From Eledone cirrhosa (lineage: Eukaryota), in NCBI GenBank assembly GCA_964016885.1, contig OZ024740.1, forward strand, positions 110,980,001 through 111,044,000: a stretch of 64,000 nucleotides of DNA, in the 5' to 3' direction. A model generated the notes under the pieces. The model worked only from the letters and a program-made list of their open reading frames with translations. It was not told the DNA's origin and ran no database searches. Both the position numbers and the translations under genes were made by a program. Shown here in pieces: positions 43,831-63,105 of the stretch; within the stretch, counting starts at the first letter, position 1; each line of letters begins with the position of its first letter.

Positions 43831-44565
43831 GAGTGGTAGAGATAATGATTATGGTTGTGATTGTGGGAGTGGAGTGTTGACGGTTTTAATGCTGGTAGCT
43901 ATGTTGGTGGGAGAGGGGTATTGACGGTATTAGTGTTGCTGGTAGTGATGGTGGGAGCGAGGTGGTAACAGAATTTGTGCTGGTAGTTATGATGGTAGGA
44001 GGGGGTGCTGACGGTAGTAGTATTGGCAGCAGCGGGGTGTTGATTGTATAAGAGTTGGAGGTTGTAAATATAGTGGGTATGATAGTAATGATTGTGATGA
44101 TGGTTGTAAATTTAGAGCCGACAGATTTGGAATGACATTCTTACGATCTTTACACTGGACTGTTTCTATATCTAGTACTGAATATGGAGGTGGGAGTGAT
44201 GATGTGGGTTATGACAGTGGTGGTTATTTTACTGTCACTAGACACTATGGGGATTGGGAGAGGCGGGAAATGGCTGAAGAAAAATCAGGTGTTATGGTTT
44301 TTGTGTCTCTAGAGGTAGCAGTAGTATTGGTGTTAGCAACGGTGGTACCTGCCGGGTAGTATTGGAGGTCGTGCAGTGATGGTGTAGTAATGGTGGAACA
44401 AGCACCGGTAGTTGTAGTGGTGGTAGTAGCTGTGGTGGTGTATACCGGGGTTTATGGTGCACAGTTTGTACAGATAGTAGTTGTTTTATTAGTGTTGTGG
44501 TGGTGTAGGCATCGTATGACTAACAACTTGATAATAGATATATATATAAATAAATAAATAAATAA

Positions 44566-44602
<37 letters not shown>

Positions 44603-44615
44603 ATATATATTTATA

Positions 44616-45006
44616 TATATTAATAAAAGGAATTTCAACTTTGTCTGATTTACTCGTTTTATTTACAATCCTTTAAAATTTATAATGATATTATAATGAA
44701 ATAGTATGGTAGAATATTAAATGTTAAGTGTTAATTGAACAAGTACTTTCATGCTTTCGCAATCTTCAGGTTCATAATGTGTGGTGACAGTCAAGTTTGC
44801 AATTTTCAACAGTTGAAAATTGCAAACTTGACTGTCACCACACATTATGAACCTGAAGATTGCGAAAGCATGAAAGTACTTGTTCAATTAACACTTAACA
44901 TTTAATATTCTACCATACTATTTCATTATAATATCATTATAAATTTTAAAGGATTGTAAATAAAACGAGTAAATCAGACAAAGTTGGAATTCCTTATATT
45001 AATATA
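44616..45006. mobile_element. Near-perfect palindrome (195-bp arms, 1-nt spacer) carrying a hammerhead in each arm; Penelope-like fold-back fragment
   Basis: Centre AATTTTCAAC-A-GTTGAAAATT at 44811; the arms differ at about 2 positions; abuts a (TA)n tract on the left. Confidence 0.85.
44848..44886 (+). ncRNA. Minimal type I hammerhead ribozyme (mirror copy on minus strand at 44736-44774)
   Basis: TGAAC-CTGAAGA-T TGC GAAA GCA T-GAAA-GTAC-TT-GTTCA: stem I TGAAC/GTTCA, intact core, stem II with GAAA loop, palindromic stem III GTAC, predicted cleavage after CUU. Confidence 0.8.
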
Positions 45007-45049
45007 ATCTTCTATACACAATCATACACACCCGTGTATATTTATCTCT

Positions 45050-45084
45050 CCCTCTCTCTCTATATATATATATATTTATGTGTG

Positions 45085-45179
<95 letters not shown>

Positions 45180-49123: not shown

Positions 49124-49521
49124 ATAGTGAAAGAATGAAGAGTAACATGGTTGGCTGTACAACAAGGGGTTTATTTCAGGTATTAACAATTGTTTCATTG
49201 ATCAGGTGAGTCTAGAGGCCGCTAATCGCTCGAAGTTGCGTAAGTCGTTCTCCATTACATTATTTACCTCTGACCAAATCCTCAGAATACGAATAATTCA
49301 TACATGGCATGATATGTATGAATTATTCGTATTCATGCCATGTAGGAATTATTTGTATTCTGAGGATTTGGTCAGAGGTAAATAATGTAATGGAGAACGA
49401 CTTACGCAACTTCGAGCGATTAGCGGCCTCTAGACTCACCTGATCAATGAAACAATTGTTAATACCTGAAATAAACCCCTTGTTGTACAGCCAACCATGT
49501 TATTCTTAATTCTTTCACTAT
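49124..49521. mobile_element. Long palindrome (about 188-bp arms) with a rearranged centre and a hammerhead in each arm
   Basis: ATAGTGAAAGAAT...CATGGCATGA and TCATGCCATG...ATTCTTTCACTAT are reverse complements with a few mismatches; the right end abuts (TA)n. Confidence 0.85.
49355..49465 (+). ncRNA. Type I hammerhead ribozyme with a very long stem II (mirror copy on minus strand at 49180-49290)
   Basis: GTATT-CTGAGGA-T TTGGTCAG..(about 64 nt)..CTGATCAA T-GAAA-CAATTG-TT-AATAC. Stem I GTATT/AATAC extends via TTATTT/AAATAA. The stem II base has 8 bp with one G-U. Stem III is palindromic and the site is GUU. Confidence 0.72.
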
Positions 49522-49553: not shown

Positions 49554-49855
49554 TATTCAAAATATTAATAAATGGATACATTCACATAATCAAGACAGGA
49601 ATTGAACCATCAGCACAGTTGAGGTATGTCATACATCAATTTATGTATTTTATCTGATGAGGACGTACTGAAAAACAGCACAGTACCTCCGAAATATATA
49701 TAATAAAACATATATTTTGATTATGTGAATGTATCCATTTATTAATATTTTGAATAATATTAATAACTCCAGAAAACTTCATTGTTGAGTGCTTTTAATC
49801 TATTGTAAAACTATATTCATTGAATAATTAATGAACCTTGTTTAACATTTGGTTA
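49550..49855 (+). mobile_element. Hammerhead-bearing element with a 44-bp inverted duplication, between microsatellite tracts
   Basis: 49550-49593 is the exact reverse complement of 49717-49760; unique sequence continues to the next TA/CA tract. Confidence 0.75.
49648..49708 (+). ncRNA. Minimal type I hammerhead ribozyme
   Basis: TTTTAT-CTGATGA-GGA C GTACTG AAAAACAGCA CAGTAC C TCC-GAAA-TATATA-TA-ATAAAA: canonical core, G-C closed stem II, palindromic stem III, AUA site. Confidence 0.82.
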
Positions 49856-58400: not shown

Positions 58401-58555
58401 GTGCTCTTAAAATAAACAGAGTTCCCATGCCGGAATCATATGATTCCAGTTCCTAAGGGAAATAACAACCCAACCAGGATCTGGGCATATCAGAGTATTC
58501 ACAATATTATACACCTCAACAACATATGTACTTGTCTATACCACACTAATTAGGA

Positions 58556-58608
58556 CTGCCTGAAGAGGTCACAGCCAAAGATGGGTGTCACTGAAATATA
58601 TATAGCAG
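58556..58608 (+). ncRNA. Minimal type I hammerhead ribozyme with an imperfect stem II
   Basis: CTGC-CTGAAGA-GGTCAC AGCCAAAGATGGGT GTCACT-GAAA-TATATA-TA-GCAG: stem I CTGC/GCAG and one C-C mismatch in stem II; 50 bp upstream of a 105-bp (TA)n. Confidence 0.68.
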
Positions 58609-58652
58609 CAATAAACGAAGCTAAATTTTAAACATTTGACTTTTTATTTAAC

Positions 58653-59001
<349 letters not shown>

Positions 59002-59112: not shown

Positions 59113-59165
<53 letters not shown>

Positions 59166-59285
59166 TATAGACATAGAATATTCGAAAATATTCTGTATGT
59201 TTATAATAAACATTTTGAAGACCTAATCGCTATAGAATAGAATACGTCACGTATTACAATTAGATTCTCGATAAAAGCAAGGGAA

Positions 59286-59328
59286 GTAATCTACGCGTTT
59301 CATTCTCGTTAGAAATCATCAGGACTAC
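59286..59328 (-). ncRNA. Type I hammerhead ribozyme, inverted copy
   Basis: Exact reverse complement of 59728-59770. Confidence 0.88.
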
Positions 59329-59727
59329 ATATCCAGTGCTTTTATCGAGAATGACACAGCTAGAGACTTATAGAATACTTAGCTGTGTACAGGAACTGGT
59401 TTGAAAGAGCGGTTGCCGGTCCGGCAGAAATTAGAAATTGGAATAAATGCTCTGAAATAGCGATATATATGTGAATATAGACATAGAATATTCGAAAATA
59501 TTCTGTATGTTTATAATAAACATTTTGAAGACCTAATCGCTATAGAATAGAATACGTCACGTATTACAATTAGATTCTCGATAAAAGCAAGGGAAGTAAT
59601 CTACGCGTTTCATTCTCGTTAGAAATTTCTGCCGGACCGGCAACCGCTCTTTCAAACCAGTTCCTGTACACAGCTAAGTATTCTATAAGTCTCTAGCTGT
59701 GTCATTCTCGATAAAAGCACTGGATAT

Positions 59728-59770
59728 GTAGTCCTGATGATTTCTAACGAGAATGAAACGCGTAGATTAC
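59728..59770 (+). ncRNA. Type I hammerhead ribozyme, first of 11 tandem copies (repeating every 310 bp to 62828-62870)
   Basis: GTAGTC-CTGATGA-T TTCT AACG AGAA T-GAAA-CGCG-TA-GATTAC: 6-bp stem I with one G-U, canonical CUGAUGA/GAAA core, palindromic CGCG stem III, predicted cleavage after GUA (59764/59765). Confidence 0.9.
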
Positions 59771-62700
59771 TTCCCTTGCTTTTATCGAGAATCTAATTGT
59801 AATACGTGACGTATTCTATTCTATAGCGATTAGGTCTTCAAAATGTTTATTATAAACATACAGAATATTTTCGAATATTCTATGTCTATATTCACATATA
59901 TATCGCTATTTCAGAGCATTTATTCCAATTTCTAATTTCTGCCGGACCGGCAACCGCTCTTTCAAACCAGTTCCTGTACACAGCTAAGTATTCTATAAGT
60001 CTCTAGCTGTGTCATTCTCGATAAAAGCACTGGATATGTAGTCCTGATGATTTCTAACGAGAATGAAACGCGTAGATTACTTCCCTTGCTTTTATCGAGA
60101 ATCTAATTGTAATACGTGACGTATTCTATTCTATAGCGATTAGGTCTTCAAAATGTTTATTATAAACATACAGAATATTTTCGAATATTCTATGTCTATA
60201 TTCACATATATATCGCTATTTCAGAGCATTTATTCCAATTTCTAATTTCTGCCGGACCGGCAACCGCTCTTTCAAACCAGTTCCTGTACACAGCTAAGTA
60301 TTCTATAAGTCTCTAGCTGTGTCATTCTCGATAAAAGCACTGGATATGTAGTCCTGATGATTTCTAACGAGAATGAAACGCGTAGATTACTTCCCTTGCT
60401 TTTATCGAGAATCTAATTGTAATACGTGACGTATTCTATTCTATAGCGATTAGGTCTTCAAAATGTTTATTATAAACATACAGAATATTTTCGAATATTC
60501 TATGTCTATATTCACATATATATCGCTATTTCAGAGCATTTATTCCAATTTCTAATTTCTGCCGGACCGGCAACCGCTCTTTCAAACCAGTTCCTGTACA
60601 CAGCTAAGTATTCTATAAGTCTCTAGCTGTGTCATTCTCGATAAAAGCACTGGATATGTAGTCCTGATGATTTCTAACGAGAATGAAACGCGTAGATTAC
60701 TTCCCTTGCTTTTATCGAGAATCTAATTGTAATACGTGACGTATTCTATTCTATAGCGATTAGGTCTTCAAAATGTTTATTATAAACATACAGAATATTT
60801 TCGAATATTCTATGTCTATATTCACATATATATCGCTATTTCAGAGCATTTATTCCAATTTCTAATTTCTGCCGGACCGGCAACCGCTCTTTCAAACCAG
60901 TTCCTGTACACAGCTAAGTATTCTATAAGTCTCTAGCTGTGTCATTCTCGATAAAAGCACTGGATATGTAGTCCTGATGATTTCTAACGAGAATGAAACG
61001 CGTAGATTACTTCCCTTGCTTTTATCGAGAATCTAATTGTAATACGTGACGTATTCTATTCTATAGCGATTAGGTCTTCAAAATGTTTATTATAAACATA
61101 CAGAATATTTTCGAATATTCTATGTCTATATTCACATATATATCGCTATTTCAGAGCATTTATTCCAATTTCTAATTTCTGCCGGACCGGCAACCGCTCT
61201 TTCAAACCAGTTCCTGTACACAGCTAAGTATTCTATAAGTCTCTAGCTGTGTCATTCTCGATAAAAGCACTGGATATGTAGTCCTGATGATTTCTAACGA
61301 GAATGAAACGCGTAGATTACTTCCCTTGCTTTTATCGAGAATCTAATTGTAATACGTGACGTATTCTATTCTATAGCGATTAGGTCTTCAAAATGTTTAT
61401 TATAAACATACAGAATATTTTCGAATATTCTATGTCTATATTCACATATATATCGCTATTTCAGAGCATTTATTCCAATTTCTAATTTCTGCCGGACCGG
61501 CAACCGCTCTTTCAAACCAGTTCCTGTACACAGCTAAGTATTCTATAAGTCTCTAGCTGTGTCATTCTCGATAAAAGCACTGGATATGTAGTCCTGATGA
61601 TTTCTAACGAGAATGAAACGCGTAGATTACTTCCCTTGCTTTTATCGAGAATCTAATTGTAATACGTGACGTATTCTATTCTATAGCGATTAGGTCTTCA
61701 AAATGTTTATTATAAACATACAGAATATTTTCGAATATTCTATGTCTATATTCACATATATATCGCTATTTCAGAGCATTTATTCCAATTTCTAATTTCT
61801 GCCGGACCGGCAACCGCTCTTTCAAACCAGTTCCTGTACACAGCTAAGTATTCTATAAGTCTCTAGCTGTGTCATTCTCGATAAAAGCACTGGATATGTA
61901 GTCCTGATGATTTCTAACGAGAATGAAACGCGTAGATTACTTCCCTTGCTTTTATCGAGAATCTAATTGTAATACGTGACGTATTCTATTCTATAGCGAT
62001 TAGGTCTTCAAAATGTTTATTATAAACATACAGAATATTTTCGAATATTCTATGTCTATATTCACATATATATCGCTATTTCAGAGCATTTATTCCAATT
62101 TCTAATTTCTGCCGGACCGGCAACCGCTCTTTCAAACCAGTTCCTGTACACAGCTAAGTATTCTATAAGTCTCTAGCTGTGTCATTCTCGATAAAAGCAC
62201 TGGATATGTAGTCCTGATGATTTCTAACGAGAATGAAACGCGTAGATTACTTCCCTTGCTTTTATCGAGAATCTAATTGTAATACGTGACGTATTCTATT
62301 CTATAGCGATTAGGTCTTCAAAATGTTTATTATAAACATACAGAATATTTTCGAATATTCTATGTCTATATTCACATATATATCGCTATTTCAGAGCATT
62401 TATTCCAATTTCTAATTTCTGCCGGACCGGCAACCGCTCTTTCAAACCAGTTCCTGTACACAGCTAAGTATTCTATAAGTCTCTAGCTGTGTCATTCTCG
62501 ATAAAAGCACTGGATATGTAGTCCTGATGATTTCTAACGAGAATGAAACGCGTAGATTACTTCCCTTGCTTTTATCGAGAATCTAATTGTAATACGTGAC
62601 GTATTCTATTCTATAGCGATTAGGTCTTCAAAATGTTTATTATAAACATACAGAATATTTTCGAATATTCTATGTCTATATTCACATATATATCGCTATT

Positions 62701-63027
62701 TCAGAGCATTTATTCCAATTTCTAATTTCTGCCGGACCGGCAACCGCTCTTTCAAACCAGTTCCTGTACACAGCTAAGTATTCTATAAGTCTCTAGCTGT
62801 GTCATTCTCGATAAAAGCACTGGATATGTAGTCCTGATGATTTCTAACGAGAATGAAACGCGTAGATTACTTCCCTTGCTTTTATCGAGAATCTAATTGT
62901 AATACGTGACGTATTCTATTCTATAGCGATTAGGTCTTCAAAATGTTTATTATAAACATACAGAATATTTTCGAATATTCTATGTCTATATTCACATATA
63001 TATCGCTATTTCAGAGCATTTATTCCA

Positions 63028-63028
<1 letters not shown>

Positions 63029-63105
<77 letters not shown>
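63029..63105. repeat. (TA)n(TG)n microsatellite
   Basis: Directly visible. Confidence 0.95.

Follow-up and report, generated by a model that had tools for sequence, protein, structure and literature searches.

Head-to-head arrays of a 310-bp hammerhead repeat in Eledone cirrhosa and the probable part of Penelope-like elements in their insertion

A stretch of 64,000 nucleotides of Eledone cirrhosa DNA (assembly GCA_964016885.1, contig OZ024740.1, positions 110,980,001 to 111,044,000, forward strand), referred to here as the window, contains close to its right-hand end an array of a 310-bp repeat, in which the complete units carry a hammerhead ribozyme motif. The repeat is almost certainly a retrozyme. 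In our assessment, it is likely a retrozyme of the type lacking long terminal repeats (non-LTR), mobilized in trans by the reverse transcriptase (RT) of a Penelope-like element (PLE), which would prime both target strands on one RNA circle. The evidence derives mainly from the anatomy of the insertions and from the sequence variants shared by their two arms.

Two-armed insertions in the window and in the genome

The forward arm of the window array has a period of 310 bp over 3406 bp (10.99 units), and the inverted arm comprises 465 bp (1.5 units); no mismatches were detected between the units or between the inverted arm and the unit. The initial annotation had assigned positions 59161..63029 to a 310-bp unit repeated about 11 times. 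The direct array is in fact limited to 59624-63029 on the plus strand, while 59162-59626, on the minus strand, constitutes the inverted arm. Several of its other readings of the locus were borne out: the aligned units are identical, all 11 plus-strand copies contain a complete hammerhead (CTGATGA at 59734 + 310n), no open reading frame is evident, and the first monomer (59765-60074) agrees with the predicted cut between 59764 and 59765. The block indeed lies inside (TA)n, which adjoins the array on both sides, so that the target tract is split in two; since this target is pure (TA)n, a target duplication cannot be read at this locus. The unit has a GC content of 34.5% and is non-coding, its longest stop-to-stop frame being 59 amino acids. 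The RT plus GIY-YIG reading frame of an autonomous PLE is absent from the unit, as are the A and B boxes of RNA polymerase III; a run of four T residues is present. In the following, unit position 1 is the first base after the predicted cut (59765).

The exact 32-nt hammerhead core occurs 4,225 times in genome G000 and its reversed control not at all, and the motif is thus not a chance occurrence. With five positions left free, the core gave 18,492 matches (again 0 for the reversed control), which, at ∼10 units per sampled insertion, corresponds roughly to 1,800 insertions, the copies having been counted by sequence patterns. Units ending at position 165 and followed by TA number 1,024, and the pattern for an end at position 130 was found 1,208 times, although the latter also detects internal units carrying 131C>T. 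Judged from its sequences, the family is young and very abundant, and the recent origin originally suggested for the array is supported.

Older sister retrozyme families are homologous over the unit, with 5,372 copies of a variant of the site-B motif (see below) that they share. Their cores (in L047, L076, L033 and L110-L139) read UUGAUAA, CUGAGGA or CUGAUGA, their palindromic helix III is longer, and many of their copies stop at the same site-B motif. Another hammerhead tandem family, of ∼490 bp, was observed at L046:2500-5600; it has internal (TA)n, is two-armed and shows the same helix II design with a U.U mismatch.

In total, 71 insertions were analyzed: that of the window, the first 10 exact-core matches, 40 selected by the site-B end pattern and 20 by the site-A end pattern, these 20 being the ones without an exact site-B partner. 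Left out before counting were L041 and L042, which have no array, L073, whose insertion is already contained in L074, a pair of short segments inside L043, and the matches to sister families in L047 and L076. L051, which runs into an assembly gap, was counted among the 7 single-armed loci.

The remaining 64 insertions are two-armed, and all 64 are head-to-head, with one arm ending at site A (unit positions 118-139) and the other at site B (157-172). This pairing was complete in each selection group (10 of 10 chosen regardless of their ends, 37 of 37 and 17 of 17). Altogether, 68 arm 3' ends map to site A, mostly to position 130 or 139, and 67 to site B, mostly to position 165; (TA)n flanks 130 of these 135 ends. 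When only coordinates were considered, 41 of 93 site-B ends faced an exact site-A end and none faced a site-B end, while 6 of 80 A-pattern matches faced another A-pattern match, two of the three pairs being variant units of A/B loci. Target duplications of 17-58 bp, visible through interrupted TA tracts, were found in 5 of 70 loci, versus 5 of 553 mismatched flank pairs. Among 63 scored arm junctions, 30 show microhomology of 1-5 nt, 9 are blunt, 21 contain filler and 3 have a longer overlap. Foreign sequence was captured at the junction in two loci (272 bp in L083:1747-2018 and 54 bp in L093:6307-6360).

PLEs are known to insert with an inverted, 5'-truncated copy, a tail of 30-40 bp at one end and a bias towards (TA)n (PMC8557442, PMC3846280). 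In vitro, purified PLE protein cleaves AT-rich DNA and extends it on both strands, its RT starts at two internal sites whose spacing equals the tail, and the RT is predicted to act as a dimer (PMC11167929). The 310-bp insertions display the same set of features, i.e., the head-to-head inverted copy, a 30-40-bp tail at one end, which corresponds to the ∼35 bases between sites A and B, and an AT-rich or (TA)n target. Because the two-armed anatomy and the two fixed 3' ends amount to a PLE footprint, mobilization by a PLE is very probable. The same two features, which the initial annotation had missed, support its proposal of mobilization in trans by a PLE RT.

The unit was also encountered in public sequencing runs. 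In twenty runs (X1-X20), labelled with 18 organism names, 65% or more of the words of the unit are present. In X3 and X10 the unit forms one closed 340-nt contig, which may derive from a tandem array as well as from a circle, and in X20 it lies within a 394-nt contig; the unit haplotypes of these three runs match or approach those in G000. Two further runs of the X18 sample are without the unit, and a Hi-C run under the label of X1 (X23) gave 0 reads, which makes carry-over between runs likelier than transfer between species.

Table 1. Features of the array, in window positions
Feature	Position	Strand	Remark
Left half of (TA)n target	59116..59161		TA x23.5
Inverted arm, 1.5 units	59162..59626	-	3' end at unit 130 (site A), 5' end at unit 286
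Complete type I hammerhead, 12th copy, within inverted arm	59286..59328	-	Motif reading
Head-to-head arm junction	59624..59626		3-nt microhomology (overlap of the two arms)
Forward arm, 10.99 units	59624..63029	+	5' end at unit 170, 3' end at unit 165 (site B)
Type I hammerhead, copy 1 of 11	59728..59770	+	Spaced 310 bp, last at 62828-62870
16-bp distal helix I extension	59704..59792	+	59704-59719 pairs with 59777-59792 (fold prediction)
First of ten predicted 310-nt monomer RNAs (putative circle precursor)	59765..60074	+	From hammerhead positions
Site A, unit 128-139, AU-rich, first copy	59892..59903	+	Putative RT start of one arm
Site B, unit 163-172, first copy	59927..59936	+	Putative RT start of the other arm
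35-bp "tail", unit 131-165	62995..63029	+	At this end only
Right half of (TA)n target, then (TG)n	63030..63053		

Hammerhead, template and proposed cycle

The hammerhead consists of a 6-bp helix I (GUAGUC/GAUUAC), the core CUGAUGA, a helix II of 4 bp that has a basal U.U mismatch, GAAA, and a helix III formed by the palindrome ACGCGU, and by motif reading the cut is predicted after GUA, at 59764/59765. The initial annotation had referred to the minimal type I form, which is typical of PLEs. In the minimal hammerhead ribozymes of PLEs, helix II has 7-8 bp and helix I 4-5 bp (PMC4209133), and with its 4-bp helix II plus U.U and its 6-bp helix I the present motif does not fall in that class; its sequence is that of the type I form which the same source calls canonical for metazoans. 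The minus strand of the unit contains no CTGATGA, and no Rfam ribozyme was found on either strand; the sequence would thus not place the unit in the viroid-like class with ribozymes of both polarities.

Variants among the sampled loci indicate that the fold is under selection. At constrained positions, none of the 6 locus-wide variants breaks the fold, whereas all 15 low-frequency variants do (Fisher p = 1.8e-5; p = 0.01 when tested against all substitutions); 11 of the 71 loci (the ten exact-core matches and the window) have an intact core by selection, and the other 60 were chosen independently of the core. All 6 locus-wide variants at paired or core sites retain pairing, among them one in which the basal U.U of helix II has become A-U. 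When 16 copies from three families (the 310-bp family and two of its sisters) are aligned, both partners change in 14 of 24 pairs, with the core pair (C3-G8 to U3-A8) among these, and 95.5% of the cells are paired, versus 36-49% in slid controls; kinship among the sequences inflates the shuffle control for covariation. The distal extension of helix I likewise changes on both sides in 7 of 13 scored pairs across the sister families, and this 16-bp extension is predicted from the fold to clamp the monomer ends. The monomer is highly self-paired (folding z = -3.91), and its minimum-energy fold contains helices I and II, while in the precursor context an alternative pairing is predicted to compete with helix II. 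With so short a palindromic helix III, cleavage is predicted to depend on dimers (PMC4209133; compare the axolotl hammerhead HHR_Amex2, PMC7229834). Selection on the fold and covariation provide indirect backing for a putative ribozyme activity.

The sequence variants also bear on the template. Among 50 loci in which both arms cover at least 90% of the variable sites (21 haplotypes), the arm haplotypes are identical in 49, as compared to a mean of 6.9 and a maximum of 17 under random pairing (5,000 shuffles). Twenty-eight variant types are present in 80% or more of the units of their locus, and 16 of these types are each confined to one sampled locus; the other variants are 76 singletons (3.4e-4 per base) and 14 mosaics. 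The 5' ends of the arms are scattered around the unit (chi-square p = 0.13); positions 1-10 account for 2 of 134, versus 4.3 expected, and the cleavage site is crossed by the arms ∼709 times. Arm length ranges from 0.2 to 45 units, with a mean of 5.3, and the lengths of the two arms show no more than a weak correlation (Spearman 0.22, p = 0.08). The shared haplotypes, together with the lack of a 5'-end pile-up at the cut and of an excess of symmetric junctions, fit the repeated copying of one monomer, and a monomer circle is quite likely to have been the template. The rolling-circle reverse transcription initially suggested is supported by the multimeric arms of common haplotype and by their spread 5' ends.

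In the proposed cycle, the array would be transcribed, and the hammerheads would cut the transcript, probably as dimers via the ACGCGU palindrome, into 310-nt monomers that would be ligated into circles, as described for related retrozymes (PMC7229834). A PLE RT-endonuclease dimer would bind the region of unit positions 60-200 and cut both strands of a (TA)n tract, consistent with the observed target bias. Synthesis would then start at site B for one target strand and at site A for the other, which would yield the two fixed ends, and each RT would travel around the template for a variable number of rounds, as the range of arm lengths suggests. Finally, the two complementary DNA (cDNA) ends would be joined by microhomology or short filler, as found at the junctions. 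The most specific version of this scheme, in which one PLE RT dimer sits on a single 310-nt circle, starts the two strands at A and B and carries out two simultaneous rolling-circle reverse transcriptions, is given an even chance.

Candidate helpers and rival explanations

In 30 loci bearing the sister site-B motif, no PLE frame was found attached, and only retrozyme-like copies were present. Two young autonomous PLE families were analyzed further. The first (L072, L170-L172; G000:C1:183.74-183.76 Mb) is very young, with a 6.67-kb unit arranged as near-identical full-length tandem trimers and head-to-head pairs. It encodes an 830-amino-acid frame with at least 150 identical endonuclease matches and RT/GIY-YIG look-alikes in the Atlas; a PDB search with this frame gave no match, and Pfam detected an RT in only one of four PLE frames. 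Its ends lie +72 and +209 from the cut of its own hammerhead, and it was rejected as the helper, since the spacing of the ends differs and no similarity to the unit is evident.

The second family (L217) contains frames of 476 and 775 amino acids with RT plus GIY-YIG motifs, its arms are 99.95% identical, and its hammerhead has 5,724 exact matches. Its ends, at ∼+125 and ∼+165 from the predicted cut, exhibit a retrozyme-like geometry, and all 10 scorable head-to-head pairs combine one long and one short end (called by motif). The L217 PLE is therefore an unproven candidate helper, alike in geometry and without sequence similarity to the unit. At L217:4750-5000 (G000:C1 near 21,876,300), each of the two full-length arms ends only a few bases from the predicted hammerhead cut, and this one locus suggests that this PLE uses a linear template whose 5' end is determined by cleavage. 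The chimeric locus L113/L192 (G000:C1 near 4,923,500), in which one arm is an L217-type PLE end and the other a sister retrozyme unit, is a weak hint of shared machinery, or else the result of a later deletion. The window itself carries a two-armed head-to-head end fragment of the L217 PLE in (TA)n (44534-45103), again with one long and one short end. Two near-perfect inverted repeats adjoining (TA)n, at 49124-49521 (399 bp) and 58762-59001 (241 bp), are probably also two-armed PLE-type end fragments, and two further motifs that resemble a hammerhead, with TATATA as helix III, were recognized by eye at 49645-49705 and 58550-58610.

The same PLE twin priming could have used an oligomeric transcript of a donor array, linear or circular, as its template, an alternative that we consider unlikely but worth weighing. 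It would explain L071 (204C>T) and L095 (173T>C), in which a low-frequency variant occurs only in the first pass of both arms and is absent from later passes, a pattern that a monomer circle cannot give. It also agrees with the arms of the L217 PLE, which stop near the predicted cut as expected of linear RNA, with the multimeric RNAs of axolotl retrozymes (PMC7229834) and with the anole PLE in vitro, for which uncleaved RNA was the main substrate and the hammerhead was dispensable (PMC11167929). Such a template is, however, at odds with the 28 locus-wide variant types, as against 2 position-shared ones, which imply a monomer bottleneck, with the scarcity of 5' ends at the cut, with arms of up to 45 units (versus the mean of 5.3) and with selection on the ribozyme among inherited variants. 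A further model, discussed in bioRxiv 2026.07.22.740005, has a monomer or short PLE-end fragment insert and then grow into a local satellite by unequal crossover. The longest arrays were indeed duplicated later (in L052, L053 and L075, with the paired variants of L053 recurring 8 units apart), and crossover thus accounts for some of the length. As an origin it is improbable, given that both inverted arms are multimeric (119 of 136 segments exceed one unit) and have private variants in common, that singletons are so few relative to the haplotype, and that the loci are very many and dispersed. Fold-back self-priming of the first cDNA, hypothesized for the head-to-head repeats of PLEs (PMC3846280), is more improbable still: 3 of 63 junctions have overlaps exceeding 5 nt, in two cases at the 16-bp inverted repeat that belongs to the unit itself, yet symmetric junctions show no excess (6 of 64 lie within 15 nt, versus 6.4 expected), and the site-A arm, which as the fold-back copy should be the shorter one, is the longer in 29 of 64. 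These two results rule out simple fold-back and largely refute it for the 310-bp family. Perfect inverted arrays assemble poorly, and exact unit numbers may be off, but an assembly or long-read fold-back artefact is scarcely credible as an explanation for arms that end at different fixed registers with different unique flanks, for recurring locus-specific haplotypes, for fillers at junctions and for a closed unit in three independent public runs.

Several of these observations weigh against the preferred reading, a retrozyme circle primed on both target strands by a PLE, namely the first-pass variants of L071 and L095, the behavior of the anole PLE and the later duplications. In addition, the arms of L062 differ at one site, and shared haplotypes would be produced by two RNAs of one donor locus as well as by one RNA molecule. 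The one-each rule is not universal, since only 4 of 6 pairs of the L072 PLE mix both ends, and the unit shows no similarity to the pseudo-long terminal repeats (pLTRs) of the two young PLE families. The sample of 71 loci was drawn entirely from the initial 165 Mb of contig C1, with an end pattern as the criterion for 60 of them. The Rfam check proposed in the initial annotation does not recognize the motif, real as it is: there were 0 matches at the gathering threshold, and none of the 4 hits at E<=10 is a hammerhead. Transcript, cleavage and circle enter the putative cycle by analogy, and 8 of 9 Xenopus retrozyme dimers remained without cleavage in vitro (bioRxiv 2026.07.22.740005).

The opposite end of the window (1-41327) is occupied by a 41-kb satellite of ∼993 copies of a 42-bp unit, the minus strand of which reads as interrupted Thr/His/Asn-rich repeats.

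Relation to known systems

The class of element is known, and dependence of retrozymes on PLEs has been proposed previously (PMC7229834, PMC7761336, bioRxiv 2026.07.22.740005). Outside the subscription journals, Dfam and Repbase, our searches returned no report of the 310-bp family, of two-armed retrozyme insertions or of the one-site-per-arm rule. The link between PLEs and retrozymes via circular RNA has so far been a proposal from co-occurrence and pLTR similarity, and the origin of the inverted repeats and tails of PLEs has been named as unsolved (PMC8557442). The present family joins both questions, as it combines a PLE footprint on a retrozyme with a strict rule of one site per arm, templates common to both arms and a ribozyme under selection. 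Its natural sequence barcodes open both the life cycle of retrozymes and the origin of the PLE tail to direct tests, and a 310-nt circle plus a PLE protein would constitute a minimal in vitro system. If the single-dimer version holds, the arrays would record the life cycle of retrozymes directly in a genome for the first time, and the tail and head-to-head repeat of PLEs would be products of one asymmetric dimer.

The non-LTR retrozymes of animals (coral, mussel and axolotl; PMC7229834) share with the present family a non-coding tandem unit of 150-450 bp, one type I hammerhead per unit, low GC (here below 50%) and thousands of copies, dispersed in the genome in the present case. Unit size, hammerheads, base composition, copy number and fold all fit the "retrozyme-like" label originally given to the array. 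The U.U mismatch at the base of helix II is found in the axolotl HHR_Amex2 as well, and a cycle from circle to tandem cDNA with a PLE helper is proposed in the same paper (PMC7229834), as it is here. Expression and cleavage have been demonstrated for those retrozymes, whereas the present family is known from DNA sequence. They are described as tandem repeats, and the main text mentions neither "inverted" nor "microsatellite"; in the present family, two arms with two fixed ends, set in (TA)n, characterize 64 of the 71 insertions. For vertebrate non-LTR retrozymes (bioRxiv 10.64898/2026.07.22.740005) the same conclusion, PLE dependence, was reached from co-occurrence and pLTR similarity, in a text that is without "tail" or "head-to-head"; here, it is the insertion footprint that leads to it.

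With endonuclease-positive (EN+) PLEs, including Poseidon PAc (PMC11167929), Neptune and Naiad (PMC8557442) and Adineta Penelope (PMC3846280), the family has in common the inverted, 5'-truncated copy, the 30-40-bp tail at one end, the AT-rich or (TA)n target and a hammerhead upstream of the RT starts. Every two-armed insertion sampled shows one putative start site per arm, a point that the in vitro pool of PMC11167929 left unresolved. Unlike the EN+ PLEs, the 310-bp retrozyme lacks an RT-GIY-YIG frame, and its arms are multimers of many rounds. In the 5' inversions that arise by twin priming of L1, both target strands are primed on RNA and an inverted arm is joined by microhomology, the two arms copying successive, non-overlapping parts of one linear RNA. 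In contrast to L1, both arms of the insertions described here copy the whole unit, repeatedly, from two fixed sites.

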